Shown: in pieces, positions 7,112-64,000 of the stretch
Layout of the letters: each line of letters opens with the position of its first letter
Numbering within the stretch: the first letter of the stretch is position 1
Source of the DNA: a virus
Length of the DNA: 64,000 nt
Reading direction: 5' to 3' (one strand)
Virus record (IMG/VR): IMGVR_UViG_3300046543_000082
Span: 16,257-80,256 of that record
Program-made: the position numbers and the translations under genes
The notes under the pieces: model-generated
What the model saw: only the letters and a program-made list of their open reading frames with translations
Told to the model about the DNA's origin: nothing
The model's database searches: none

Positions 7112-9457
7112 TTAGCTGAACGTGCCGACGGCGACGTTCTGCAGGGTGATAGCCGACGCGCTGGTGACAGTCACTACGAACTCGCGCCATGTTGCCGTCG
7201 CGATAGTCATCGTGCCGGTGAGCGTCCAACCGGTCGCCGTCGTCACCGTGATCGTCTGCCCCGTGTTCGTGTTCGTGATGCGCAGACGATAGGTGGTGCC
7301 AACCGCAGGACCATAGAGCGACTGCAACAGATTGGCAGCCGTCGGCAGGTTTGCGGTGATCGCGCCACCCTGCGCGCCGGTGATCGCCAGATCAACCGAG
7401 GCTTCGCCGCCCGAAATCTGTGCGGCGTTGAGGTTTAGTGTCGCCGCGCTGGCAACGGTGTTGAACGCTGCGGTCTGCGGAGCATCCAGCAGACACGTCC
7501 ACGAACCCGGATTCGCCTCGATGAAGGTTGCCGACGAGTTCGGCGGCATGGCGACGCCCGTCGCGCCCGCAATGCCATTGATCGTGTCGGCCGTGCCGGA
7601 CGAAACGTTGTAGCTGTAGACCTGAACCGGATTGGCCGTGTTGTTGATCAGGAACACCTTGTCGGTGCCCGAGCCGATCTGCGGCAGTGCTACGCCGTCG
7701 CCGAAGTTGGTGCCCGCCGTAGCGGCCGTGGAAGTGTTGACGGTCGTTACGTCCGCCGTGATCTGCGTTGCACCCGCTTGCGTGCGCGTGGTGCCCGCCG
7801 TAATTACGCTGCCTGCCATGACTGCTCCTTTGAATGTGACGACGGGGAACCCCACCGCCAGGGTTGTTTTGCCCCAGGGGGCGTTCTGTTGGCCGATCTG
7901 GATGTTCAGTCCGAGAGCCGGGCCGCTGACATTCGCGCCGCTATGGAACAGACGCAGCGTTCCGTCACCTGCATCGACAATGAATGAATCGAAGTTCTGA
8001 GTGCTTTCCCACGAATACGCACCGGGCTGCCCAGCGCCAATTCGCCATGCCCATGTCACGCCGCCGTCGAGCGAAATGCCCTGCCCGATCCAGCGCGCAA
8101 CAGCCGGATTGCCGGATTGAGTCTGCGGCACATAATCGAACGAGATGAGGTACTGCTTGCCTTCCTGCCCAGGCGGGACATAGATAGAAGGCTCGCCAGC
8201 AGAGTCATTGCGGAACAGGCCCACGGGCGGAAGTGCAGCCGGAATGACCGCACTTTGATCGACCCACGTCACGCCAAGGTCGCTCGACGCGAGCAACCCG
8301 AAGCGTCTGATGGAGTCGAGGCCGACGCCGCAGCACCACATCTCAATGACGTTGCTGCCCTGCCGGACGCGCAACATCGGATCGAATACACCTTGCGCCC
8401 GCCATGCACTGTTCGCCGCCGGAACGGTATTGCTGCATATCAAGCCGACTCTAGTCCACGTATGCAAGTCGGGGCTTGTCGCCCACCGTATATCCGTGCC
8501 GTTATCAGACACGTAGGCTTGGTAATACGTGCTGCCGATCAGAATGGCGCCGCCGTTGAACGAATAGAAGCCATCCGTTCCATTCGCGAGCATCACCGGA
8601 TTCGAAACGTCTGCGGTCCACGGCCCATCGATGGTCGTCGATGTCCACAGCCCGAGGTTCAGAATGTTCGAATTGGCCGCGTTCCCGTTCGTCGAATGCG
8701 CGGCAGCGGTGTAACCCGACACAAGCATCGCCCAGCGAGAATTTAGGCTGTCGTAGAACGGTTCCGGATTGGCGATGTCCGTTGCGTCCCAAGTGCCCGC
8801 TGAACCCTTGGGAATAACCGGAGCGCCGCCATTCGCCGAGATCGGCGTAAAGGCCGGCCAGTTGTAATTCAGCCCGAGCAAGGTCTGGACTTCTATAGGC
8901 CCCCAAGTGGCGTTTCCGCCTGATGGCCCGTTGACGCCCATGTAGATTCCGCACTTGGTCGCCGTCTGATAGAGCGTGGACACAAGCGATGAAACCTGCA
9001 CACCGTTAACAAAGACTGTGATGTTCTGGCCCACGCAGTCGATGCGGACAGCGGTGACGGCGTTGTTAATCACCGTCGCATCGGCTATGTACATCTGATC
9101 GAACTGCGAGCCGCTCTGCTTGTTGTAGAGCGTGACGCGGTTATACCGAGGGTCTACCTGAATTCCCCAGTGATTGTTCGCGTCCACATAACGGAACAGA
9201 AGGACGGCGATAACGCACAGGTTGTTATCCGGCGAATACGACGACATGGCGCATGAGACGGTGAAGTCTGATACGCCAGCGTCGAAAGTATTGGCGTTCG
9301 CATTAACCTGAATCGCCGCCTGCGCCTTCCCACTACCATTCAGCGTGAAGGCGCCGGCCGCGTTCGTGCTCCATGCTTTGTTGCCGATATTCGTCGGGCG
9401 GGATTCAACGAACGTTCCACTGGTCCCAAAGAAGTCGTCTTCCGCAAAAACGGTCAT
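7112..9457 (-). CDS. Fusion: ConA/LamG-like sandwich + five-bladed beta-propeller glycosidase-like module + putative capsid decoration domains
   Basis: Immediately after MCP; PVIPKG..G.WD..DIANP, NPVM, WATSPDL.TW, GVFDP, GEPS motifs; internal AAAGGAG-N5-ATG at 7819 gives a 235-aa short form. Confidence 0.65.
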   Translation of the reverse strand: MTVFAEDDFFGTSGTFVESRPTNIGNKAWSTNAAGAFTLNGSGKAQAAIQVNANANTFDAGVSDFTVSCAMSSYSPDNNLCVIAVLLFRYVDANNHWGIQVDPRYNRVTLYNKQSGSQFDQMYIADATVINNAVTAVRIDCVGQNITVFVNGVQVSSLVSTLYQTATKCGIYMGVNGPSGGNATWGPIEVQTLLGLNYNWPAFTPISANGGAPVIPKGSAGTWDATDIANPEPFYDSLNSRWAMLVSGYTAAAHSTNGNAANSNILNLGLWTSTTIDGPWTADVSNPVMLANGTDGFYSFNGGAILIGSTYYQAYVSDNGTDIRWATSPDLHTWTRVGLICSNTVPAANSAWRAQGVFDPMLRVRQGSNVIEMWCCGVGLDSIRRFGLLASSDLGVTWVDQSAVIPAALPPVGLFRNDSAGEPSIYVPPGQEGKQYLISFDYVPQTQSGNPAVARWIGQGISLDGGVTWAWRIGAGQPGAYSWESTQNFDSFIVDAGDGTLRLFHSGANVSGPALGLNIQIGQQNAPWGKTTLAVGFPVVTFKGAVMAGSVITAGTTRTQAGATQITADVTTVNTSTAATAGTNFGDGVALPQIGSGTDKVFLINNTANPVQVYSYNVSSGTADTINGIAGATGVAMPPNSSATFIEANPGSWTCLLDAPQTAAFNTVASAATLNLNAAQISGGEASVDLAITGAQGGAITANLPTAANLLQSLYGPAVGTTYRLRITNTNTGQTITVTTATGWTLTGTMTIATATWREFVVTVTSASAITLQNVAVGTFS

Positions 9458-9490: not shown

Positions 9491-10471
9491 TCAGCCGTTC
9501 GTGTCGAAAATCGCGCCTTGGGCGTGCTCGTTGCCCAGTTCCAGCGTGTATTCGACGAGCAGTTCCTTCTTGTCCGAGTCACCCGTCTTTGCGAGCGGGA
9601 TCGTCTGGAACGGGCGCAGGTACGCGACGCGCACGTAGTTCGGGTTGATGCCGAACACGTCGCCCGAGTGCGCCAAGAAGATGTCCGGGATGATCTTCAC
9701 GTCGCCGAAGTCCGACTGGTAGATATCGACGGCGGTCTTCAGCGTCTTGTCTTCCACTTCGATGAAGCGCGTTCCCGGACCGGCGAAGGCCGAGATGTTC
9801 TGCTTGTTCGTCGGCGAGACCAGCATGTACTCGGGGCAGTCGCCGGACGACGAGAACACCTTCTGGATCATCGACTTGACCATTGCTTCGGTGATGGCCA
9901 CGGTCGTGCCGTTGTAGGTGCGCGTGTTCGTGCCGTCGGTCCAGCCGTTCGAAGCCAGCGCCGGGTTCGCGCCCGACGGCGAGCCGCCCGTCTGGAACAC
10001 GACGTTGGTCGTCAGGAAGGCCGGCAAGCCAGCGGAATTGCGCGCGACCGACGACGAACCGGCGCTCTTCGCCTGGTTGTAGGTCAGAATGCCTTCCATG
10101 TCGCGCTTCATTTCCTTCGACTTCTTGAGCAACTGGTAGCCCATCTTGTTCGAGCCACCGGCAGCGACGACAGCCTGCGACGTGCCCGAGATCTGGACGA
10201 CCTTCGTCGAGATCTGCGTGTTGTTGCCGATACGAGCCGTCGGCGTGAGCGTCTGAGCGGTCGGATCATCGCCTTCGATGGCCGCATTGCTCAGGTTCTG
10301 CGCGTCGAGCTTGTCGGTGTTCCACTCGTGATTCGTCTGCTTCGCTTCCGTCTTCTTGCACATGTTCAGGAAGGGCGTTTTAAACGGATCAACGTTGTAG
10401 ATTGCGTTGATCAGGTCTTCGCGGATGTTCTTCTGCGTGTAGACCTGGAAGGTATTTGCAGGTACGGACAT
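9491..10471 (-). CDS. Major capsid protein (SU10/DUF5309-like)
   Basis: REDL...IYN.DP..TPF, HEW.TD.L, N.TQI, YLRPF...LAKTGDS motifs; follows scaffold. Confidence 0.85.
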   Translation of the reverse strand: MSVPANTFQVYTQKNIREDLINAIYNVDPFKTPFLNMCKKTEAKQTNHEWNTDKLDAQNLSNAAIEGDDPTAQTLTPTARIGNNTQISTKVVQISGTSQAVVAAGGSNKMGYQLLKKSKEMKRDMEGILTYNQAKSAGSSSVARNSAGLPAFLTTNVVFQTGGSPSGANPALASNGWTDGTNTRTYNGTTVAITEAMVKSMIQKVFSSSGDCPEYMLVSPTNKQNISAFAGPGTRFIEVEDKTLKTAVDIYQSDFGDVKIIPDIFLAHSGDVFGINPNYVRVAYLRPFQTIPLAKTGDSDKKELLVEYTLELGNEHAQGAIFDTNG

Positions 10472-16120: not shown

Positions 16121-16306
16121 TCAATCGCTGCCCATCTTTTCCCAAGCGTCGTGACTTGCCGGGTGCCGTGCGTCGCTCGTGCGCTTGTTCGTTGCGGTGC
16201 GCTCGCCGCGCTCGGGCATCTTCTTCCCAGTGGGTGCTTTGGCGGCAGGCATAGCCTCGGCCTTCGGTGCGGCCATCATGGGCTTGCGGGTGCTGAACTT
16301 GGCCAT
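16121..16306 (-). CDS. Small basic hypothetical protein
   Basis: 61 aa in late operon leader region. Confidence 0.45.
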   Translation of the reverse strand: MAKFSTRKPMMAAPKAEAMPAAKAPTGKKMPERGERTATNKRTSDARHPASHDAWEKMGSD

Positions 16307-16437: not shown

Positions 16438-16480
16438 AAACCCTGCGGAGGAGAATCGCAGGGGGAGGAGGCAAAAACTC

Positions 16481-16549
16481 AATCTAGCAAAATTGTACGT
16501 TTTAAGAGGGTATGTGTGAACTAGCGAGACGTGAACGTTAGATGTTCAC
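16481..16549 (-). promoter_or_regulatory. pR'-like late promoter with pause-like element and upstream palindrome
   Basis: TTCACA-17-TACAAT, then -10-like TAGATT; GTGAAC-N7-GTTCAC; core identical in phage B. Confidence 0.65.
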
Positions 16550-16752: not shown

Positions 16753-17128
16753 GCTCTGCCACAGGTTGGCCTTCCATCATAGCCCGATATGCGCGGTGCG
16801 CCTCAGCGCGGAACGTGCGGAGCAGCCGATAGAAGTATGAGGTCGAGAATCCCATCTCGTGCGCGATCGCCTTGATGTTCTTGGCGCGGTGCAGGTAGAA
16901 GAGATAGAAGATGAACTTCGACTGGCTTTCCTTCTGAGCGAGAACTGACAAGTTGAAGTAGCTCAGGTTCGCGCTCAGCAGCGCGTCAGGCACTTCGCCG
17001 CCTCCAGATGGTCCGCGCATACGTGCGAGGATGTTGGCAGGCACAGGAGGCGCGAATAGGCGCCGGGAACGATGCCATTCGGCCCAGCGGAGGCAGAACA
17101 GGTGCAATTCTTGGTTTTCTTCGGTCAT
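16721..17128 (-). CDS. Late-gene regulator (Q-like antiterminator/activator)
   Basis: End of nin region, L.RWAEW N-terminus, C-terminal HTH (IKAIAHEMGFSTSYFYRLL). Confidence 0.65.
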   Translation of the reverse strand: MTEENQELHLFCLRWAEWHRSRRLFAPPVPANILARMRGPSGGGEVPDALLSANLSYFNLSVLAQKESQSKFIFYLFYLHRAKNIKAIAHEMGFSTSYFYRLLRTFRAEAHRAYRAMMEGQPVAEREEENELQHA

Positions 17129-17403
17129 TTTCTACCCCCGTAAAGTCGTTCGATCGTCGCCGCTAGGCAATCTAGTTCGCTTACTTTCACCACTTCCCAC
17201 ATGCGGCGCTGGCCGTGGATTCCGTTGAAGCTTCCCTGATGACAGTCTTTGCAGAGAGGAATCACGCAGAATCCTGGGCTTTTCCTTCCTGGCGTGCGGC
17301 CGGCGAGGATGTGATGCGCATCGCTCGGGCCATGCGTGCCGCATACTGCGCAGTCGAGTTCCTTCACGCGCGCAATGTGAAGTCGTTCGGCTGCGGCGGT
17401 CAT
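17125..17403 (-). CDS. Ref-like/HNH-type zinc-binding nuclease
   Basis: CAVC...HH...IPLC..CH motifs; near-identical copy at 57041-57319. Confidence 0.7.
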   Translation of the reverse strand: MTAAAERLHIARVKELDCAVCGTHGPSDAHHILAGRTPGRKSPGFCVIPLCKDCHQGSFNGIHGQRRMWEVVKVSELDCLAATIERLYGGRK

Positions 17404-23625: not shown

Positions 23626-24092
23626 TGAACTGGAACCGAAGAATTACTGAAGCCAGAGAAGCCCGCTCGATGTCCAAGGCGGAGTTGGCGCGCGCCTGTA
23701 ATGTGTCGGCGCCGACCGTGACCGACTGGGAAAGCGGGAAAATAAAAAACCTCGACGCGGCCAATATGCTGACGATCTGCGAGGTTTTGGGAGTCGAACC
23801 CCGGTGGCTAGTGTGGGGATTTGAGAGCGGCAAATCGCCGAACAGAGGGGACTTCGTGCCTATTACCGGCGAAGCAAAAAAGCTAATTCAGTGCGTCATG
23901 CGTCTGGACAAGGGGGGGCCAAAAGTACGACAAACGTTTGCTTACACTCTCGGCATCCTTGAAATTGTCGAAAGATTGGGATTGGTACATGATGCCGATG
24001 TGGTGGCCGAGCTTGCAGAACAGGAGCAGCTCTTGGCACTCCACGCCGAGCCATCTAGGGTTTTAAAACATGCCCCCCGCAAGCACAAATGA
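23625..24092 (+). CDS. cI: CI-like repressor (phage A): XRE HTH, no S24 peptidase domain
   Basis: SKAELARACNVSAPTVTDWESG...WLVWG; short helical C-terminus shared with cI-B. Confidence 0.8.
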   Translation: MNWNRRITEAREARSMSKAELARACNVSAPTVTDWESGKIKNLDAANMLTICEVLGVEPRWLVWGFESGKSPNRGDFVPITGEAKKLIQCVMRLDKGGPKVRQTFAYTLGILEIVERLGLVHDADVVAELAEQEQLLALHAEPSRVLKHAPRKHK

Positions 24093-24141
24093 AAAAACCA
24101 TCGTCAGCATGGACCTTTACCGGCAGCGTCGAACTGTCGAA
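23882..24141 (+). repeat. Direct repeat copy 1 (cI 3' half + small ORF start)
   Basis: Matches 63741-64000 with five synonymous mismatches by eye; may extend beyond the window. Confidence 0.92.
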
Positions 24142-46257: not shown

Positions 46258-46719
46258 TCACTGCTCCTTGAATTTGGTTGTCTTGCCGAGATCGATTCTG
46301 CTGATAGTCGTCTGATGAACGCCGAACTTATCCGCTACCTCTTGTTGACTAGCGCCGGCTTCCAACAAATCCAAGATTTCCGCGACTTGTGCCCGCGTAA
46401 ACCGGCTTTTGGTGCCTCGCCTGCCCTTCGCATCCATATCTGCAACGTTGTCGGCCAAGCTACCCAAAGCAAGATGCTCGGGGTTGACGCACAGCCGGTT
46501 GTCGCATCTATGCATGACGACCATCCCATTAGGAATGGTTCCCTTGAAAAACGCGTAAGAGGCGCGATGGGCGGTAAGTGTCCTGTGATTTTCATCCATG
46601 AACTTACCGTAGCCACCGCGAGCCAAACCCGCTTGCCACTCATGACAACCAGATTCGACTTGCTTCACTTTGTCCAGAAATCGCTTAACAGGATCGACAG
46701 GGGGTCTACCGCCGGGCAT
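46258..46719 (-). CDS. Free-standing HNH homing endonuclease
   Basis: C.EW...GYG.F...AHR.SY, V.HRCDN..CVNP.HL..G....N..DM..KGR, C-terminal HTH. Confidence 0.88.
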   Translation of the reverse strand: MPGGRPPVDPVKRFLDKVKQVESGCHEWQAGLARGGYGKFMDENHRTLTAHRASYAFFKGTIPNGMVVMHRCDNRLCVNPEHLALGSLADNVADMDAKGRRGTKSRFTRAQVAEILDLLEAGASQQEVADKFGVHQTTISRIDLGKTTKFKEQ

Positions 46720-49232: not shown

Positions 49233-51446
49233 TTATTCGCCGGATTCGGCTGTACGCGCCGCGCTGATCTGCGCTGCGTCGAGAGTGGTTTCAGCGGAGA
49301 TTTCCGCGACTTCGATGGCGCGGGCGTTGTTCAGGTGAGCAATCAGCACTTGCATCTGCGCCTGCATCTCGGATTTCTGCGCGTCCATCATCATGCGCAT
49401 CTGCTCCAAACGCTGCTCTTGCTCGGCCTTCATCTGGTCCCGATGCATTTCAAGCACTTGCTCTTGCGTCGCCTGGCGCGCTTGGGCTTCCTGCTCGGCA
49501 TTGGCCGTCTGTTGCGCGAGATGCGCTTTCAGCATTTCAAGTTGGCCTTGCTGCTGCATCTTGGCCTGCTCAATCTGATTGCGCCCCTGCTCCATCTGCA
49601 TGTCGATCTGCGCACCGGCCTGCTTCTCTTGGATGCGCGCTTGCGACTCAGCCTGAACCTTCTGGATTTCGATCGGAGGCGGCTTGGGCTGTCCGGCCTG
49701 CGCCTGAAGCTGCTTCGTCAGCGTCTCCGCGGCGTTGTCGATCATCCCTTCCAGCGTCTTGCCGGCCTTGAACGCTGACACGCCGAACTTGAGGATTTCG
49801 ACCAGCACGGGTGCCAATTCAGGCGTCGCCTGCGCGGCCGGGACGGCTTGCTGAAGGAACTTGCTGACCATCTCGACGAACTCGATACGGTCCTGCTTCT
49901 GCGCGTCCTCGTCGATCTGCACCAGAGAGTCAGCGTCGACCTCGATCCGGAACGAGCGCAGCACCTTGTTGCGCAGCATCTGGAGCGCTTGCGGCACGAG
50001 TTGCTGATCTTCGGGCAGCAACTGTCCGGCGGACGCCATCTGAAGGATCGTCTGATCGCTGAACTTGCCGCAAATGACCTGTGCTTTGAGGCGCAACAGT
50101 TCAGTCGCGTAGATCGCAACGTCTTCCTGAGTCGTGCGCAGCCGTACCGCGCCGAAACGTGCCTTGATACCCTGAGCCGTCGCCGTCTCTGCCGCGTCAG
50201 TCTCGCCGCGCATGATGTCGGCAATACCGGTCAGCGCGTAAATCTGTTGGACGACGTTCTCGCGCGCCTCGAATGCGATCTGCAATGCCTGTGCGATCGG
50301 CCCAAGGTCAATGATGTCGACAGCGCCTTTCAATCCGCCCTTCTCAGCGAACGCTGCAAAGCTCTTGACCGGGATTAGGTCGTTGTTTCCCGTTTCCGTG
50401 AACAGCCGCTGCAATTCCTTGAACTCGGCGTTGTACACGCCGCGCACCTTGAGCGCCTTAATCAGCCCGTCGATGCGATCGCTGATGACATCGAGCTCGT
50501 TCGCCTGGTCCTGATACTGGATGAAGTCAGGGACCGGAACGAGCGTATCGCTGGTCGTCGTGCCGAGCAGCGGCTTCGGGCATGGGAAGAAGCCTTCGAG
50601 GCCGAGCGGATCGTCCTTCTCGTCAAGCAACTGCCCCACGGACTTCGACAGCCAGACGGCCTTCTGCGTCTCTATGTCCCAAATCTCATAGACGCATGCC
50701 TGCTTGTTCATCTGCTCTTGGCCGGTCGCCATCTTCGACTCGCCATAGCCCTCTGCGCCCGGCGTCGCATCGAGAGGCACACGCATGGCCGTTTCTTCGC
50801 CGAAGCGCTCGCAGAGCTTCGAATAGGAAAGGTAGACGCGACGCCATACGCATGTAACCTCTTCCCATGTCCGTGCGACCGAATGGCCGAAATCCTTCCA
50901 ATGCACATAGTCGACCGGCGATGTCTCGTCGTCAATCTGCTCAAGTGGCTGATCGTCTGTGATCTGTTCCGCGCCGGCGCCCTCGATCACCGCATCGTCA
51001 TCGCCGTATTCGTCCTCGGACAGCGGCTCCTGCACGCTCGTGACCGGCGCATATCTCACCCATGCCACGCCACGCCCGCACAGGAATCGATCCTGGACGC
51101 TGTTCTTCATCGCCTCCCGGTAATCCGGGTAATGGCGCACTTCAAATTCCAGCGCTCTTTCAAGTAAGAGTGAAGCTACACGCCCGACAGGGTCGCTATC
51201 TCTGAAACGACGGGATACGTCGGGCTGCGGTAGGCGACTGAAGGTTGCTGGAACCAGTGTCTGTACATTGGCCCATAGGATGTTGAAGCGTGCGGACTCG
51301 CTGCCACAGGTGTATTCCTTCGCGTCGTCGCGGTAGCGCTTCGTGATCTTTGTCGAGCGGTCCGTCCACTTGTTGAACGTCTTATCGTAGGCCGTGATAT
51401 AGCCTAGGTAGCGCTCTACTTCGGGCGAACGCGTTGGTTGTGCCAT
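49233..51446 (-). CDS. Portal protein (phage B)
   Basis: FNILWANV..L.P, GRGVAWVRY, FFPCPKP, AETATAQ.IK; long Q-rich coiled-coil tail. Confidence 0.85.
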   Translation of the reverse strand: MAQPTRSPEVERYLGYITAYDKTFNKWTDRSTKITKRYRDDAKEYTCGSESARFNILWANVQTLVPATFSRLPQPDVSRRFRDSDPVGRVASLLLERALEFEVRHYPDYREAMKNSVQDRFLCGRGVAWVRYAPVTSVQEPLSEDEYGDDDAVIEGAGAEQITDDQPLEQIDDETSPVDYVHWKDFGHSVARTWEEVTCVWRRVYLSYSKLCERFGEETAMRVPLDATPGAEGYGESKMATGQEQMNKQACVYEIWDIETQKAVWLSKSVGQLLDEKDDPLGLEGFFPCPKPLLGTTTSDTLVPVPDFIQYQDQANELDVISDRIDGLIKALKVRGVYNAEFKELQRLFTETGNNDLIPVKSFAAFAEKGGLKGAVDIIDLGPIAQALQIAFEARENVVQQIYALTGIADIMRGETDAAETATAQGIKARFGAVRLRTTQEDVAIYATELLRLKAQVICGKFSDQTILQMASAGQLLPEDQQLVPQALQMLRNKVLRSFRIEVDADSLVQIDEDAQKQDRIEFVEMVSKFLQQAVPAAQATPELAPVLVEILKFGVSAFKAGKTLEGMIDNAAETLTKQLQAQAGQPKPPPIEIQKVQAESQARIQEKQAGAQIDMQMEQGRNQIEQAKMQQQGQLEMLKAHLAQQTANAEQEAQARQATQEQVLEMHRDQMKAEQEQRLEQMRMMMDAQKSEMQAQMQVLIAHLNNARAIEVAEISAETTLDAAQISAARTAESGE

Positions 51447-53437
51447 TATTTCACCAGGCTAGAGCTTGACCACGGGGCATTCTGTTGGCCAATCTGGATA
51501 TTCAATCCGAGAGACGGGCCGTAGACATTCGCGCCGCTGTGGAATAGGCGAAGCGTTCCGTCGCCTACATCGACCACGAATGAATCGAAGACCTGCAAGT
51601 TTTCCCACGCATAGGCGCCCGGCACTCCAGCAGCAATGCGGAACGCCCACGTCAGGCCGCCATCCAGTGAAATCCCCTGTCCGATGAACCGGCCAATAGG
51701 CGGATTGCCTGTCTGCGTTTGCGGAACGTAGTCGAATGAGATCAGGTATTGCTGGCCTTCTTTCCCGGGCGGCACGTAGACCGATGGTTCACCAGCCGAG
51801 TCATTGCGGAACAGCCCGACAGGCGGCAGAACAGCAGGGATGGTCCCTGTCTGATCGACCCACGTCGCGCCCAAGTCGCTTGACGTGAGCAAGCCGAACC
51901 GTTTCACGCCATCGCCGCCGAGGCCAGCGCACCACATTTCAATGACCGTGCTCCCCTGACGAACACGCAGCATCGGATCGAAAACGCCCTGATTGCGCCA
52001 GAAGTTATTCGAAGCCGGCACAGTCGCGCTGCAGATCAGACCGACTCGCGTCCACGTGTGCAAGTCTGTGCTCGTCGCCCACCGGATTGTCGTGCCGTTA
52101 TCAGAGACGTACGCCTGATATGTCGTGCCGGCGATCTGAACCGCGCCACCATTGAATGAGAAGAATCCGTCTGTCCCGTTCGCAAGCATTACCGGATTCG
52201 AAACGTCAGCTGTCCAGGGCCCATCAATGGTCGTCGATGTCCACAACCCGAGGTTCAGGATGTTTGAATTTGCTGCATTCCCATTCGTCACATGCGCGGC
52301 CGCCGTATAACCAGACAGCAGCATGGCCCATCGATTGTTCACGGCATCGAAGAACGGCTCGGGATTGGCGATGTCCGTTGCGTCCCATGTGCCGGCCGAA
52401 CCCTTGGCAATAACCGGAGCGCCAGCATTTGCCGCGAGCGCCGTAAAGACGGGCCAGTTGTAATTGAGTCCTACCAGCGACTGAACCTTTATCGGGCCCC
52501 ACGTTGCGTTGCCGCCAGATGGTCCATTGACGCCCATGTAAATACCGCACTTGGTCGCTGTCTGGAATAGCGTCGACACGATCGACGAAATCTGGACGCC
52601 ATTTACCCAAATCGTGATGTTTTGGCCAACGCAATCCACGCGAACAGCCGTGATGGCGTTATTAATTACAGTTGCGTCCGCGATGTACGCCTGATCGAAC
52701 TGCGTGCCGCCCTGCTTGTTGTAGAGCGTGACGCGGTTATAGCGCGGATCAACCTGGATACCCCAGTTATTGCCCGCGTCCACGTAACGGAACATCATGA
52801 CTGCGATCACGCACAGATTGCCATCCGGCGTGAACGATGACATCGGACACGTGATGGTGAAATCCGACACGCCAGCATCGAAGACGTTGGCATTGGCGTT
52901 CACTTGAATAGCCGCCTGAGCCTTTCCGCTGCCGTTCAGCGTGAAAGCGCCAGCCGCGTTCGTGGTCCATGTCTTGTTGCCGATGTTCGTCGGTCGTGAT
53001 TCGACAAACGTGCCGGCCGTCCCAATGAAATCGTCTTCGGCAAAGATTGACGCACCGCCGCCGAGACTAGGCGCCCACGCATTGTTTCCGAGACAGTAGA
53101 AGTCGCCCGTCTGTCCGCCTGCAAGCGATGCAGATGCAGCCGCATTGAGGAAACTACCGCCAATCGGCGGATATACCAGCATCGGCGTCGACGAAGCATT
53201 GACGATGACGTATATGTCGCCGGCGACTGCGGTCATGCTGACCATGTTTTGCGCCGGCAGCCGAACACCAGACGACGCAGGCACGTTCGAGAACACGCTG
53301 AAGTCGTTGCTGATCAGGGTTGCGTTAGCTTGGGTCGTGCCGGCAGCCGTGAGGTTGAGCGCGGGAAGGCCTGCGGTCGTGTTCTGTGCCTGAGCGCCGG
53401 GTACGCCCGACCCCATCAGCTTCGCAAGGGTAGTCAT
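51446..53437 (-). CDS. Fusion: small virion domain + ConA/LamG-like sandwich + beta-propeller glycosidase-like module
   Basis: N-terminal ~127 aa paralogous to 55474-55857; remainder closely similar to 7874-9457. Confidence 0.7.
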   Translation of the reverse strand: MTTLAKLMGSGVPGAQAQNTTAGLPALNLTAAGTTQANATLISNDFSVFSNVPASSGVRLPAQNMVSMTAVAGDIYVIVNASSTPMLVYPPIGGSFLNAAASASLAGGQTGDFYCLGNNAWAPSLGGGASIFAEDDFIGTAGTFVESRPTNIGNKTWTTNAAGAFTLNGSGKAQAAIQVNANANVFDAGVSDFTITCPMSSFTPDGNLCVIAVMMFRYVDAGNNWGIQVDPRYNRVTLYNKQGGTQFDQAYIADATVINNAITAVRVDCVGQNITIWVNGVQISSIVSTLFQTATKCGIYMGVNGPSGGNATWGPIKVQSLVGLNYNWPVFTALAANAGAPVIAKGSAGTWDATDIANPEPFFDAVNNRWAMLLSGYTAAAHVTNGNAANSNILNLGLWTSTTIDGPWTADVSNPVMLANGTDGFFSFNGGAVQIAGTTYQAYVSDNGTTIRWATSTDLHTWTRVGLICSATVPASNNFWRNQGVFDPMLRVRQGSTVIEMWCAGLGGDGVKRFGLLTSSDLGATWVDQTGTIPAVLPPVGLFRNDSAGEPSVYVPPGKEGQQYLISFDYVPQTQTGNPPIGRFIGQGISLDGGLTWAFRIAAGVPGAYAWENLQVFDSFVVDVGDGTLRLFHSGANVYGPSLGLNIQIGQQNAPWSSSSLVK

Positions 53438-53706
53438 CAGCCGACGATCGCTGTTGCGCTGATCGTGCCGCCGACCACGATGTAATGGCCTTGGCCTGCG
53501 GCGAGGTGCATCGGCGTGAAGCCAACCGGCAATAGCACTGTGTCAATCAGCTTCGTGGCCGTCGACGTGGCATTGCTGTCGTAGACAGCCACCGTGCCGG
53601 ATGTCGTGCTCGAGACGAAGATGCCAATCAACGTCTGACCGGGGATTGCGTTGACATTCTTACTCGCGCTGAACAGAACGCCGCCGCCGCTAATGCTCGA
53701 TGCCAT
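53437..53706 (-). CDS. Small beta-rich virion protein
   Basis: Start trimmed to MASSISG; L.GIFVSSTTSGT...YD motif; TAATG-coupled to terL. Confidence 0.55.
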   Translation of the reverse strand: MASSISGGGVLFSASKNVNAIPGQTLIGIFVSSTTSGTVAVYDSNATSTATKLIDTVLLPVGFTPMHLAAGQGHYIVVGGTISATAIVG

Positions 53707-55070
53707 TACAGCCTCCGATGATTCGATACTTGCCGCATGTGATCTTCCCAAACGTCGTTTAGCGTCTCGCTGGCGTCGAAATTGGCCCAGTCAGGCTCAT
53801 GCTTGGGTGCGATGTATTCCGCCTCGCTCATCACCTGCGCGCCATATGCGAACGCGTCAGATGGATGCGAGGCCCAGTTGTGCAGCGGTTCTTTCGAAAA
53901 CACGCCCGTGTCGTCATTCCACTCGTATTCCCACGCGCCAAGGCCATCTAGCCCGGCTTCACATGCGGTACGGTTGAATGCACATTTCGGGATGACCGCG
54001 CGAGCTGCGCTGATCTGGTCAAGTTTCTTGGTCTGCGGCACGACATCGACCTTGCCGCCGCCAAACGCCGCTAGAAACCGCTCCATGCTCGTGTGCTTGC
54101 TTTGGAACGTCTTGGCCCGCGCATCGTGCGGCAGCCATATCTTTCCGAGCTTGGCGCCCATGTCGGTGATGCTCTGCTGAATGCGTGGAATCCAGTCCTC
54201 AGCATCCAGCCCTGAATCACCTTCGTATTTGACGAGGTTGAATCCACCCGGCAGGCGCTGCCAGTACCACCATGAGGCCGTATCGCGGAACCCCAAGTCG
54301 CTGCTGATCTCAATCGGCGCGCCCAATGGGTCGTATTCAATCTCTTCGCTGATCCGGCCTTCGCGCTCTGCGGCGCTGACCCACTTACCAAGGATCGACC
54401 CGGCGATGTTGCCGTATGCGCCTTCCCAGATATGGTCGTACTCTTCTTCCGGCAGGTTCGCTAAGTCACGCTGACGAGCACGCTGCAACACGGAAGGAAA
54501 GCGCGGATTGTCACGCCAGTTCAGTTCGATGATCTTGAACAGCGGGTCTTTCACGCGCCTGAAGCGCAGATCGGTCGGACTACCCTTGCGCCTTGGGTTC
54601 CACGTCACCCACAGTTCGCTAACCTCTTCGCGCAGGGTCGGGATCAGCGTCGACCATGCCATGTTGGTGACTGGCTCGGCCTCGTCCACCCAACACAACA
54701 GAATGCGCGCCTTCGACTTCACACTGTCGATGCTGCGATCTAGCCCGGCGAACTTGTATGAGATGCGCCCGTCTTTCGTGCGGATGTACTTCTCGCCGAT
54801 CTCGAAGAACGCTTCTAGCCACGGCTCAGACCGAATCGCCGCCTTCACTTCCTCTAGCGACGAGTCATCTAGCGAGTTCATGAACTGCCGAGCGCAGAGG
54901 ATGATCCCCTCGCGGCCTTCCATCGCCCACATATAGGCGCGAACGGCGCTCATCTTGGCGAAGGATCGCGTCTTACCTGATCCCCGGCCGCCGTATGCCC
55001 CGCGTATGTCCGCCCTGCCACTGAAGACAGGGATTAGCTTAGGAGGAAGCTGAATCCTGGCTGTTGTCAC
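53706..55070 (-). CDS. terL: Terminase large subunit (PBSX-like)
   Basis: GGRGSGKT, WVDEAE, TWNP, HNWASHPSDAF; homologous to phage A terL. Confidence 0.92.
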   Translation of the reverse strand: MTTARIQLPPKLIPVFSGRADIRGAYGGRGSGKTRSFAKMSAVRAYMWAMEGREGIILCARQFMNSLDDSSLEEVKAAIRSEPWLEAFFEIGEKYIRTKDGRISYKFAGLDRSIDSVKSKARILLCWVDEAEPVTNMAWSTLIPTLREEVSELWVTWNPRRKGSPTDLRFRRVKDPLFKIIELNWRDNPRFPSVLQRARQRDLANLPEEEYDHIWEGAYGNIAGSILGKWVSAAEREGRISEEIEYDPLGAPIEISSDLGFRDTASWWYWQRLPGGFNLVKYEGDSGLDAEDWIPRIQQSITDMGAKLGKIWLPHDARAKTFQSKHTSMERFLAAFGGGKVDVVPQTKKLDQISAARAVIPKCAFNRTACEAGLDGLGAWEYEWNDDTGVFSKEPLHNWASHPSDAFAYGAQVMSEAEYIAPKHEPDWANFDASETLNDVWEDHMRQVSNHRRL

Positions 55071-55347
55071 TCAGCGGCTCCAGGATGATCCGTTGCACGA
55101 CTGTGAGTGGATTTTGCTCATCGCCCGCGACCTGGAGAGGAAGCATCTTCCCCCAAAGCTGGTAGAAAGCGGTCGGATTCTCTCCAGCCCATACTTTCAG
55201 GCTCTCGACACCGCCGATTCCATCGAATGCCTCTGCGAGCGCTTCCTTTACAGCCACGGTCGACTTGTTCAGCGAGCCTTTAGGCCGTCCCTTGCCTGCG
55301 TTGGGCGGCTTCCGGCCTGTAACTTTTCCTTCTTTACTGGTTTCCAT
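55039..55347 (-). CDS. terS: Terminase small subunit
   Basis: GKGRPKGS.NK.T..VKEAL..A...GGVE.L..W..ENP.AF..L.GK.LP.QV.G. Confidence 0.75.
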   Translation of the reverse strand: METSKEGKVTGRKPPNAGKGRPKGSLNKSTVAVKEALAEAFDGIGGVESLKVWAGENPTAFYQLWGKMLPLQVAGDEQNPLTVVQRIILEPLSDNSQDSASS

Positions 55348-55473
55348 CGCTTTTCACATACTTCTGCGCCAGCGTCTCAGCCTGTTGGAGCAGATCGTCG
55401 AGCGACGAGTATTCCCCGTGCGCTTTGATCTGCTCGATAGCCCATTCGCGGGCTTCTGCTGAGATGGTCATGA

Positions 55474-55857
55474 TCAGCCGCCGACGCTCGGCGCCCAGAC
55501 GTTGCCGCCCAGGCAATAGAAGTCGCCTGTCTTGCCGCCAGCGAGAGAAGCTGAGGCTGCGGCGTTGACAAAGCTGCCACCGGTCGGGGGATAAACGAGC
55601 ATTGCTGTTGCGGAAGCGTTGACGACGACATAGATGTCACCGGCAAGCCCGCACATCGACGATGCATTCGCCACGGGAAGGCGCGCGCCAGACGAAGCGG
55701 GGACGGTCGAGAAGACACTGAAGTCGCTGGTAATCGCTGTTGCGTTCGCCTGCGTGGTGCCTGCGGCGGTCAATCCCGATGCGGGAACGCCGGCGGTAGT
55801 TGCCTGTGCTTGGGCTGCCGGCACTCCGGAACCCATGAGCTTCGCGATGGTTGTCAA
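55474..55857 (-). CDS. Stand-alone small virion (decoration-like) domain protein
   Basis: TTG start with AGGAG SD; paralogue of the N-terminus of 51446-53437. Confidence 0.65.
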   Translation of the reverse strand: MTTIAKLMGSGVPAAQAQATTAGVPASGLTAAGTTQANATAITSDFSVFSTVPASSGARLPVANASSMCGLAGDIYVVVNASATAMLVYPPTGGSFVNAAASASLAGGKTGDFYCLGGNVWAPSVGG

Positions 55858-55866
55858 TTTATTCTC

Positions 55867-56181
55867 CTAAGCTGCGCGCACGGCGCTTTCAACTACATAA
55901 GGTCTGAATAGCTCGCCGTCGTGCTCCGCGAGGATTTCTTCGATCGTCAAATCGTCCAGCAGAATCCAGCCGGTCATTTCGTCACCAGCGCCAAGTCCAT
56001 CGCTCCATTGTCCGAAGCGCACGAACTGTCCTTCAGGCGACAGACGAGCCGGGTCGAGCGTCACTTGGTAGGTCACGACACGCGGCGCTGGGTGGCCAAG
56101 ATCGTCCAGCAGCTTTGCGTTCTTCAGCTCGCGATCAAATGACACGATGGCGACTTGCTTCTTGGTGATGGCTTCGATCAT
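55867..56181 (-). CDS. Hypothetical protein
   Basis: Start trimmed to MIEAIT with GAGG SD. Confidence 0.5.
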   Translation of the reverse strand: MIEAITKKQVAIVSFDRELKNAKLLDDLGHPAPRVVTYQVTLDPARLSPEGQFVRFGQWSDGLGAGDEMTGWILLDDLTIEEILAEHDGELFRPYVVESAVRAA

Positions 56182-56185
56182 TGGC

Positions 56186-56371
56186 TCAGTACGCCTCTTT
56201 TTGCGCAATTGACCTGAAATATTCGGCCGCTTTCCGAAAGTCTGTAGCCGAGATGGCGATTCGCGGATAAAGACGGCCGCCGTCCATTCCAACCCATCTG
56301 TCCATTTCCCATCGGCCGCACTTGTATCGAATGCGCGGCTTTAGGCGTGGGCGGGTGAAGTCATTGTCCAT
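56186..56371 (-). CDS. Hypothetical protein
   Basis: 61 aa, KPRIR...GRW; TAATG-coupled to upstream micropeptide. Confidence 0.45.
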   Translation of the reverse strand: MDNDFTRPRLKPRIRYKCGRWEMDRWVGMDGGRLYPRIAISATDFRKAAEYFRSIAQKEAY

Positions 56372-56490: not shown

Positions 56491-56583
56491 AAACCTGCGG
56501 GGGATTCGCAGGAGAGGAGATGGGATGTCTTTCCATCAGTCAGCTACGGGGATAGCGGTGGCACAGCGTGAAGGCAAAAACTC

Positions 56584-56652
56584 AATCTAGCAAAATTGTA
56601 CGTTTTAAGAGGGTATGTGTGAACTAGCGTGATGTGAACACAAACGGTTCAC
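56584..56652 (-). promoter_or_regulatory. pR'-like late promoter (phage B)
   Basis: Same TTCACA-17-TACAAT, TAGATT and GTGAAC-N7-GTTCAC as 16481-16549. Confidence 0.65.
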
Positions 56653-57044
56653 GCCATTTCCTCTTCTTGCTCCATCACCGGCTGACCATTCAGCATAGCG
56701 CGATAAGCTCGGTGCGCCTCGGCTCTGAACGTCCGAAGCTGCCGGTAGAAATACGATGTCGAGAATCCCATCTCATGCGCGATTGCCTTGATGTTCTTGG
56801 CGCGGTGCAGGTAAAAGAGATAGAAGATGAATTTCGCTTGGCTTTCCTTCTGTGCGAGAACGGATAGATTGAAATAGCTCAGGTTCGCGCTCAGCAGAGC
56901 GTCAGGCACTTCGCCGCCTCCGGCTGGTCCGCGCATGCGTGCAAGGATGTTGGCTGGCACAGGAGGCGCGAATAGGCGCCTGGAACGGTGCCACTCGGCC
57001 CAGCGGAGGCAGAACAAATGCAATTCTTGGTTTTCTTCGGTCAT
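56649..57044 (-). CDS. Late-gene regulator (Q-like)
   Basis: Near-identical to 16721-17128. Confidence 0.65.
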   Translation of the reverse strand: MTEENQELHLFCLRWAEWHRSRRLFAPPVPANILARMRGPAGGGEVPDALLSANLSYFNLSVLAQKESQAKFIFYLFYLHRAKNIKAIAHEMGFSTSYFYRQLRTFRAEAHRAYRAMLNGQPVMEQEEEMA

Positions 57045-57319
57045 TTTCTTCCACCGTAAAGTCGTTCGATCGTTGCCGCGAGGCAATCTAGTTCGCTTAC
57101 CTTCACCACTTCCCACATGCGCCGCTGACCGTGGATTCCGTTGAAACTTCCCTGGTGGCAGTCTTTGCACAACGGAATCACGCAGAATCCTGGGCTTTTC
57201 CTTCCTGGCGTGCGGCCGGCGAGAATGTGATGCGCATCGCTCGGGCCATGCGTGCCACATACGGCGCAGTCGAGTTCCTTCACGCGCGCAATGTGAAGTC
57301 GTTCGGCTGCGGCTGTCAT
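57041..57319 (-). CDS. Ref-like/HNH-type zinc-binding nuclease
   Basis: Same protein as 17125-17403. Confidence 0.7.
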   Translation of the reverse strand: MTAAAERLHIARVKELDCAVCGTHGPSDAHHILAGRTPGRKSPGFCVIPLCKDCHQGSFNGIHGQRRMWEVVKVSELDCLAATIERLYGGRK

Positions 57320-63453: not shown

Positions 63454-63951
63454 ATGAACTTATCAACCAGAATCCAGACCGTGCTCACCGAGGTCGGCAT
63501 CGATCAGGTCGAGCTGGCGCGCGTTATGGGCGTGACAAAGGGAACGGTCAACCAGCTTCTGAACGGCTCCATCCAGTCGCTGAAGCTCGAATACGCCGTG
63601 GGCGTGCAGGATGCGTTTGGCTATAACGCCGTCTGGCTGGTGCTCGGAAAGGGGCCAAAGAAGGGAAATTCGTCCGCAGACGAGGCTGTCGATTCATCGA
63701 ACAGATGCCAAAACCCCGTTCTTTCCTCCGAAGCGGACCGGCTAATTCAGTGCGTCATGCGACTAGACAAGGGGGGACCAAAAGTACGACAAACGTTTGC
63801 TTACACTCTCGGCATTCTTGAAATTGTCGAAAGATTGGGATTGGTACATGATGCCGATGTGGTGGCCGAGCTCGCAGAACAGGAGCAGCTCTTGGCACTC
63901 CACGCCGAGCCATCTAGGGTTTTAAAACATGCCCCCCGCAAGCACAAATGA
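63454..63951 (+). CDS. cI: CI-like repressor (phage B): XRE HTH, no S24 peptidase domain
   Basis: Q.ELAR.MGVTKGTVNQLL.G...WLVLGKG; last ~69 aa identical to cI-A. Confidence 0.8.
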   Translation: MNLSTRIQTVLTEVGIDQVELARVMGVTKGTVNQLLNGSIQSLKLEYAVGVQDAFGYNAVWLVLGKGPKKGNSSADEAVDSSNRCQNPVLSSEADRLIQCVMRLDKGGPKVRQTFAYTLGILEIVERLGLVHDADVVAELAEQEQLLALHAEPSRVLKHAPRKHK

Positions 63952-64000
63952 AAAAACCATCGTCAGCATGGACCTTTACCGGCAGCGTCGAACTGTCGAA
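63741..64000 (+). repeat. Direct repeat copy 2 (runs off window), including 5' part of the 57-aa ORF from 63929
   Basis: Matches 23882-24141. Confidence 0.92.

Follow-up and report, generated by a model that had tools for sequence, protein, structure and literature searches.

Phage tailspikes and depolymerases are well described as proteins that join an attachment part to a swappable carbohydrate-active part (PMC6872550; PMC8825819). Within this group, the KP32/KP34-type Klebsiella anchor-branch systems and the branched tailspikes of G7C and CBA120, which contain T4 gp10-like domains, provide the nearest comparison for the locus described here (PMC6872550; PMC8825819). We analyzed a stretch of 64,000 nucleotides (the window; positions 16,257 to 80,256) of the 80,256-bp IMG/VR virus record IMGVR_UViG_3300046543_000082. 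The window contains two phage-like units, A and B, both on the minus strand, as are all genes and domains given by coordinate below. Each unit carries a copy of the same module, a lectin-like domain followed by a propeller with a predicted glycoside hydrolase (GH) fold. In phage B, the module follows a diverged duplicate of a small late protein, p127, in a gene for 663 amino acids (aa) at 51446–53437, while in phage A it precedes two fiber domains, d1 and d2, in a 781-aa gene at 7112–9457. The locus is an instance of the known anchor-plus-enzyme modularity of receptor-binding proteins, set in an unusual genomic place.

As in the tailspike systems, a phage-specific attachment module is connected through a flexible linker to a horizontally exchanged carbohydrate-active domain, one enzyme module is found on different anchors in different phages, and the attachment side contains a T4 gp9/gp10-type (XD1) sandwich. 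This combination of an exchangeable carbohydrate-active domain with phage-specific attachment domains is what characterizes modular receptor-binding proteins. However, several features are new here: in place of a beta-helix, the enzyme is a lectin plus five-bladed propeller, the genes are found in the packaging and head region, an anchor-only paralogue exists as a free core gene, and the domain order is mirrored, with the phage A enzyme N-terminal to fiber domains. The window proteins also differ from the tailspikes in being known from genes alone. An earlier note on this DNA had proposed an undescribed modular virion-display system, which overstates the case given the XD1 fold shared with tail and tailspike proteins, the bead-like repeats of the carrier and the many partners of the module. 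Rather, the finding adds detail to known biology without overturning it. The locus offers a clean, datable example of one carbohydrate-active module reused on different attachment parts, with two independent captures on opposite sides of homologous domains and exact insertion edges. Furthermore, it brings out a large unannotated family of fiber beads and a variable slot between terminase and portal genes in a group of rhizosphere phages.

Residues 130–661 of the 663-aa protein are 82.7% identical to the first 532 residues of the phage A protein (tblastn, window positions 9454–7859). At the DNA level, the two copies form one ungapped match of 1575 nucleotides with 78.7% identity, in which 9448–7874 of phage A correspond to 53044–51470 of phage B (blastn). 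The closely similar module claimed by the earlier note, placed by it at about 51470–53047 in phage B, is thus real, and that range is exact. The domain order is reversed as claimed, the module being C-terminal in phage B and N-terminal in phage A, where the copy (7874–9457; tblastn, blastn) lies directly downstream of the capsid gene and starts at an ATG of its own at 9457. In every homologue, the module starts with [IV]FAEDDF and ends with QQNAPW.

The module is not bound to this carrier, as had been supposed, since it also occurs in stand-alone genes of 527–542 aa and with at least four unrelated N-terminal partners. Namely, at 78–86% identity it is joined to three unrelated N-terminal domains (74, 141 and 142 aa), to p127, and to a C-terminal d1-d2 part. 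A distant homologue, P0214 (30% identity), has an N-terminal region that matches He_PIG. The module is present in at least four phage backgrounds, lying between head-tail connector genes in one (L059) and after the portal gene in another (L062). Pfam searches of the cargo parts of other p127 or d1 fusions returned nothing usable. Between the phage A and phage B copies, the synonymous divergence (dS) is about 1.1 and the ratio of nonsynonymous to synonymous divergence (dN/dS) is 0.10. The phage B module (51449–53047) is closer to that of phage A (82% aa identity, dS 1.1) than to that of L001 (4479–6077; 78% aa identity, dS 1.8), which belongs to an otherwise similar fused gene. This suggests that the module has been swapped within the fused gene independently of the N-terminal domain, and that exchange is frequent but, given the dS of about 1.1, not recent between units A and B.

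The AlphaFold model of the 663-aa protein has an overall predicted local distance difference test score (pLDDT) of 80. It shows two short N-terminal helices, a beta-sandwich at residues 26–125 (pLDDT 81–92 over residues 31–60 and 71–120, lower in the 61–70 loop), a disordered segment at 127–153, a jelly roll at ~155–320 and a propeller at ~323–663. The module begins at the edge IFAEDDF with a low-confidence lead (131–153), followed by the jelly roll, which is modeled as ConA/LamG-like and lectin-type (lead and jelly roll together, 52478–53047); this combined region has a weak Pfam match to 3keto-disac_hyd. The remainder (51449–52471) is a predicted five-bladed beta-propeller of glycoside hydrolase fold, as found with VIA and Foldseek. 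In VIA, it matched BT_0996 with Z 28.4 (292 aligned residues, root-mean-square deviation (rmsd) 3.4) and GH43, GH130, GH32 and GH62 entries with Z 22–26, the fold match covering ~270–290 residues. In the model, the propeller therefore has the five-bladed fold of GH43-type glycoside hydrolases, and it carries three Asp-box-like motifs.

Of note, residues D355, D364, D487, E500, D569, D592 and D618 are invariant across 13 homologues. The likeness of the module family to the five-bladed clan (GH43, GH32, GH62, GH130; BT_0996) lies in the predicted fold, in the presence of invariant Asp and Glu residues and in an N-terminal lectin-like domain like that of many such enzymes. In contrast to that clan, the module sequence scores under the Pfam cut-offs (17.7 bits for GH43, against a cut-off of 32.2), the invariant acidic residues are candidates for a catalytic Asp/Asp/Glu triad, and the propeller is known here from its predicted fold. 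Because of the Pfam scores, we use 'glycosidase' as a fold-level term. A sialidase reading was rejected: NanB and NanC ranked high in Foldseek, but with a template-modeling (TM) score of ~0.25 and an rmsd of ~19 Å, and the domain-level search favored five-bladed GH43-type propellers.

In the 663-aa protein, the ~530-aa module is preceded by a flexible linker and a 127-aa N-terminal domain (53057–53437) that is a diverged duplicate of p127, as judged from identity, tree and dS. Free p127 (55474–55857; 51 homologue clusters) is itself a 127-aa protein, in which a conserved N-terminal peptide of ~25 aa precedes an XD1-type beta-sandwich. The two are 78% identical in amino acid sequence across all 127 residues (E 1.6e-54), and the unfused paralogue that the earlier note had placed at 55474–55857 is therefore genuine. 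To follow the history of phage B we used 50 IMG/VR loci, 27 of which span terL to portal. Wherever the retrieved sequence of a close relative extends to that position, p127 stands after up141 and before terS, and because of this conserved position we take p127 to be an ancestral core late gene of the phage B family.

The notion that the plain and loaded forms arose by duplication stands in part. A maximum-likelihood tree groups the five fused N-terminal domains in a single clade (support 99/93), which falls within the free copies of the closest relatives, so the fused domain does descend from a duplicated free gene; the free p127, however, is ancestral and was not supplied by the duplication. 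The fused form occurs in four contigs besides the window, five in total. In two of them (L006 and L007) the free p127 copies belong to another clade, which indicates that the fused gene moves as a unit. Free and fused copies have reached saturation at synonymous sites (dS at least 1.5), while dN/dS within the fused clade is 0.08–0.14, so the duplication is old and the duplicate is constrained. Conservation between the two kinds of copy is strong in the N-terminal peptide.

Other p127-like domains are fused to unknown partners on either side (L037, L041, L042/L045 and L048), and in distant phages such fusions are located after capsid or portal genes. In L037 (5570–7679), the capsid gene is followed by a free p127-like copy and then by a copy of 554 aa whose C-terminal part is unknown, and in L047 (3269–4538) two p127-like copies flank a small gene between portal and scaffold. 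Neither p127 nor the 781-aa protein had a tblastn match in 50,697 deposited phage genomes, and sequence searches of the PDB gave nothing meaningful. PHROGs held no match for p127, p104 (see below), the 663-aa protein or the 781-aa protein; Pfam had none for p127 and weak sub-threshold matches for the other three.

The fused gene of phage B occupies a variable slot between terL and the portal gene, and 23 of the 27 relatives that span this region lack it. The slot holds a gene for a small beta-rich protein, p104 (53437–53751; the true start is perhaps the ATG at 53706), which in relatives lies directly 5' of the portal gene. It contains p104 only in 12 of the 27 loci, p104 together with the fused gene in 4 (L001, L002, L006 and L007), and, in place of p104, a different small protein (p107) together with Gly-rich, collagen-like fiber genes of ~600–690 aa and small partners in 11. 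In relatives, the p104-portal junction reads TGA-T-ATG. In the window, the 663-aa gene starts in an ATGA overlap with the TGA stop of p104, and its TAA stop overlaps the ATG of the portal gene (49233–51446; phrog_12082, E 1.8e-175) as TAATG. By its sequence, the 663-aa gene is thus an exact insert between p104 and portal, with apparent translational coupling at both ends.

Comparison of p104 with p107, or of either with d1, gave no clear relation (probability 0.2–15%), and p104 was not related to the 100-aa neighbor in phage A. Between terL and portal, L011, L013, L018, L025–L028 and L049 encode p107 and then the Gly-rich, collagen-like proteins of ~600–690 aa; in most of these loci there are, in addition, proteins of ~150 aa and/or ~120 aa with C-terminal motifs similar to those of the large protein. 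The p107-type content looks like an alternative fiber set.

The phage A gene has a different history. Nine relatives (L063–L071) lack the module and show the capsid gene, a hairpin, GAAGGAG and the ATG of the d1 gene; in these, d1 is constant, but the C-terminal domain may be d2, a second d1-like domain or a domain of another kind. The module start region in the window reads AAGGGGCAGTA-ATG and the module stands in place of the hairpin. Module genes usually end with GKTSLIS and a stop codon, but the phage A copy reads GKTTLAV and continues via GFPVVTFKGAV into the old start. The resulting linker (7820–7873) comprises this C-terminal tail of the module and former intergenic DNA with the old AAAGGAG site, now translated. 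Since relatives of both phages lack the module, the fusions arose separately, as the earlier note had argued.

The old start is retained. AAAGGAG is followed after 5 nucleotides by an ATG at 7819, in frame at the domain boundary, and in alignment this segment corresponds to the region around the start of the relatives' unfused gene. Stand-alone homologues begin at the residue of this same ATG. The sequence therefore has the ribosome-binding site and in-frame ATG expected of a gene with two isoforms, and the internal start at 7819 may be used. An assembly error is excluded, since the junction recurs unchanged in contigs of other rhizosphere samples. Sinorhizobium phage phiM5 (L051), whose capsid protein is 42% identical to that of phage A, likewise has genes in the slot that follows the capsid gene. 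There, positions 7449–9038 code for a GDSL/SGNH hydrolase and a small protein, and the annotation of each records its detection in the particle proteome. Neither shares homology with d1, d2 or the module; the case is analogous in that an enzyme gene stands beside a capsid gene. Neither phiM5 nor BUCT555 carries d1 or d2.

The part on which the module landed in phage A, d1 (7478–7819, starting at the retained ATG), is a homologue of p127. Pairwise BLASTP of p127 against phage A was marginal (E 0.006), but hhalign of the p127 family against the d1 family gave a probability of 99.3% (E 2.4e-20, 93 columns). With a p127 hidden Markov model (HMM), residues ~549–657 of the phage A protein were the best non-self open reading frame in the window (E 1.7e-4), and conversely the HMM of the phage A family matched p127 at 1.8e-13 and the N-terminus of the 663-aa protein at 2.5e-9. 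The carrier alignment, which had been drawn by eye, is therefore borne out by profile-profile comparison and by HMMER in both directions. One correction concerns the extent of the match: of the 235-aa short form of phage A, only the first ~110 residues (d1) match p127, and the last ~125 form a different domain, d2 (7112–7477), a C-terminal jelly-roll knob by VIA that is unrelated in sequence to d1 (hhalign probability 1%).

The model of d1-d2 has a pLDDT of 90. The best structural match of d1 is the C-terminal sandwich of the Acinetobacter phage Solidus tailspike gp83 (PDB 24qj; Z 11.6, rmsd 1.9 over 87 residues, 22% identity), in which the sandwich is C-terminal to the enzyme, as d1 is in phage A. 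VIA also matched d1 to residues 80–212 of CBA120 TSP4, its XD1 domain (Z 9.7), and the Foldseek list includes T4 gp9, gp10, CpaA and StcE; the published XD1 set comprises these same proteins (Table 2 of PMC8825819). As modeled, d1 superposes on TSP4 XD1 and T4 gp9 and so has the XD1 fold. Matches in BFVD are many unnamed phage proteins of ~120–140 aa, together with tail fibers and depolymerases. The other domain, d2, resembles the distal, C-terminal knob of the Pa223 capsid spike gp52 (VIA Z 9.1), a short trimeric fiber with a jelly-roll distal knob for which a role in host adsorption has been proposed (bioRxiv 10.1101/2025.06.11.659172). This fold likeness is limited to d2: there is no similarity to the N-terminal arm or beta-helix shaft of gp52, and phage B lacks d2.

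The d1-d2 family comprises 782 clusters at 50% identity, and no Pfam or PHROG model covers d1 or d2. Its top 150 members (P0054–P0203) mostly consist of one to four d1 beads capped by one to three d2 beads. Thus, d1 is a general fiber building block and not a dedicated display scaffold, and because it recurs as a tandem bead in hundreds of fiber-like proteins, two landings on d1 are less striking than they first appear. In a protein-language-model search, p127 was linked to a cluster with PF25692 in 33% of its members. The HMM of this Pfam family, Phage_depo_C (25-bit cut-off), had no match in the record at E ≤ 10, and of 24 d1-d2 family members only one reached E 0.059, which at the sequence level places the family outside PF25692. 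By its name and the language-model lead only, PF25692 may be related to the d1 family.

Starting from the observed homologies, folds, insertion edges, independence of the fusions and purifying selection, we lean toward the view that the 663-aa gene encodes an accessory, enzyme-bearing short fiber or spike, built of standard receptor-binding-protein parts, that reaches the particle via its p127-type module. The N-terminal module, namely the ~25-residue peptide and one XD1 sandwich, would probably direct the protein to the virion site or partner of p127, and the flexible linker would carry the lectin-like domain and propeller, which would bind or cut host surface polysaccharide. Phage A gained a related copy of the module separately, between the capsid gene and the gene for the d1-d2 fiber protein, and this copy now reads through the old ribosome-binding site into the d1-d2 gene. 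We infer virion attachment, oligomeric state and enzyme activity from these parts; the attachment site may be either head or tail. If the proteins are carried by the virion, p127 together with its loaded paralogue would offer a simple model of how a particle gains an accessory enzyme, and a possible engineering scaffold.

Several points weigh against such a fiber or spike. The p127 and 663-aa genes are in the packaging and head region, not among tail genes, and known phage depolymerases are mostly beta-helix proteins, not propellers. The propeller does not reach sequence-level membership of any GH family in Pfam, the phage A d1-d2 protein lacks the N-terminal peptide of p127, and the presence of p127 or the 663-aa protein in virions is predicted from genes. 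In addition, XD1 in CBA120 and T4 has been described as a spacer and not a docking surface (PMC8825819), and the XD1 domain itself may not be the anchor.

The same gene locations could be read differently, with p127 and d1-d2 as capsid decoration proteins whose plain and enzyme-loaded forms co-assemble as mixed oligomers on the head, in a dedicated display system. Right behind the capsid gene one finds distant p127 homologues and every phage A-type d1 gene, which is suggestive only; L037 has plain and extended copies side by side in that position; the phiM5 slot holds a virion-borne, though non-homologous, hydrolase; and d2 resembles the knob of a capsid spike (Z 9.1; bioRxiv 10.1101/2025.06.11.659172). 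However, Pa223 gp52 is anchored to the capsid by its N-terminal arm and not by the knob, and nothing here matches that anchor. In fold, d1 matches tail and tailspike proteins best, both d1 and d2 can be repeated as fiber beads, the module is joined to many other partners, and the phage B genes do not adjoin the capsid gene, so we regard decoration as unlikely. More doubtful still is a related possibility, that small XD1 proteins such as p127 and d1-d2 are widespread, unannotated, head- or neck-bound trimeric studs, loaded with enzyme via a second, extended subunit made by duplication or by an internal start. If true, plain and loaded chains would share one binding site at a set ratio and form a natural phage-display scaffold.

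Gene location outside the tail module would also suit a soluble late lectin-glycosidase that is released at lysis, for example to free progeny from exopolysaccharide, with the p127-type domain serving only to oligomerize or to bind glycan. The stand-alone module genes of 527–542 aa fit this idea, as does the use of the XD1 fold for glycan-binding repeats in the secreted proteases CpaA and StcE (PMC8825819). Yet phage-specific N-terminal domains, which usually signal virion anchoring, have been joined to the module repeatedly, the L059 copy has head-tail connector genes on both sides, and free and fused copies share a strongly conserved N-terminal peptide; we give a soluble enzyme no more credence than the studs. 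Finally, both fusions might have arisen by accident and be neutral, through read-through in phage A and chance recombination in phage B, with the joined form functionless. The phage A fusion is indeed confined to its lineage and its linker is untidy former intergenic sequence. But five contigs retain the phage B fusion, with dN/dS of ~0.1 in both parts, the phage A junction is identical in other samples, and both module copies are under purifying selection, so that, on the selection data, neutrality is highly improbable. An accessory enzyme-bearing fiber or spike therefore remains our preferred reading.

Turning to the genomic setting, unit A has the order terS, terL, portal, scaffold, capsid gene (9491–10471; phrog_1328) and 781-aa gene. 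Unit B has the order late leader, up141, p127, terS, terL, p104, 663-aa gene, portal, scaffold and capsid gene (phrog_9953). This gene order agrees with the earlier placement of the module-bearing gene between terL and portal and of the free paralogue upstream of terS. The capsid and portal genes of A and B fall into different PHROG families, which confirms that these proteins are dissimilar in the two phages, and the terL genes are ~46% identical. In phage B, terS (55039–55347) was assigned by position and phrog_11043, and terL (53706–55070) by Pfam Terminase_3 (E 3.4e-18) and phrog_3717. The late leader (56572–56639) lies upstream of the phage B late genes and is 97% identical to the phage A leader at 16469–16536 (blastn). 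Between it and p127 lies up141 (55867–56292), a conserved gene of unknown function without a PHROG match that is always 5' of p127 in phage B relatives (tblastn, 50 loci). By their position downstream of this shared leader, up141 and p127 would belong to the late transcription unit.

Besides the leaders, two further segments are near-identical between the units, 16760–17403 and 56676–57319 (91%) and 23882–24141 and 63741–64000 (98%), and these coexist with unrelated structural genes. The record could be a pair of tandem prophages, or two mosaic phages joined in assembly. A scan of reference genomes for a host matched a single fragment of a metagenome-assembled genome, and a Caballeronia genome is the source of one p127 homologue in NCBI, so that Burkholderiaceae are no more than a guess as hosts. 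Directly 3' of the phage B capsid gene lies an HNH homing-endonuclease gene (46258–46719; phrog_1872, E 5e-32), and in the relative L049 the corresponding slot after the capsid gene holds a distant p127-like gene.

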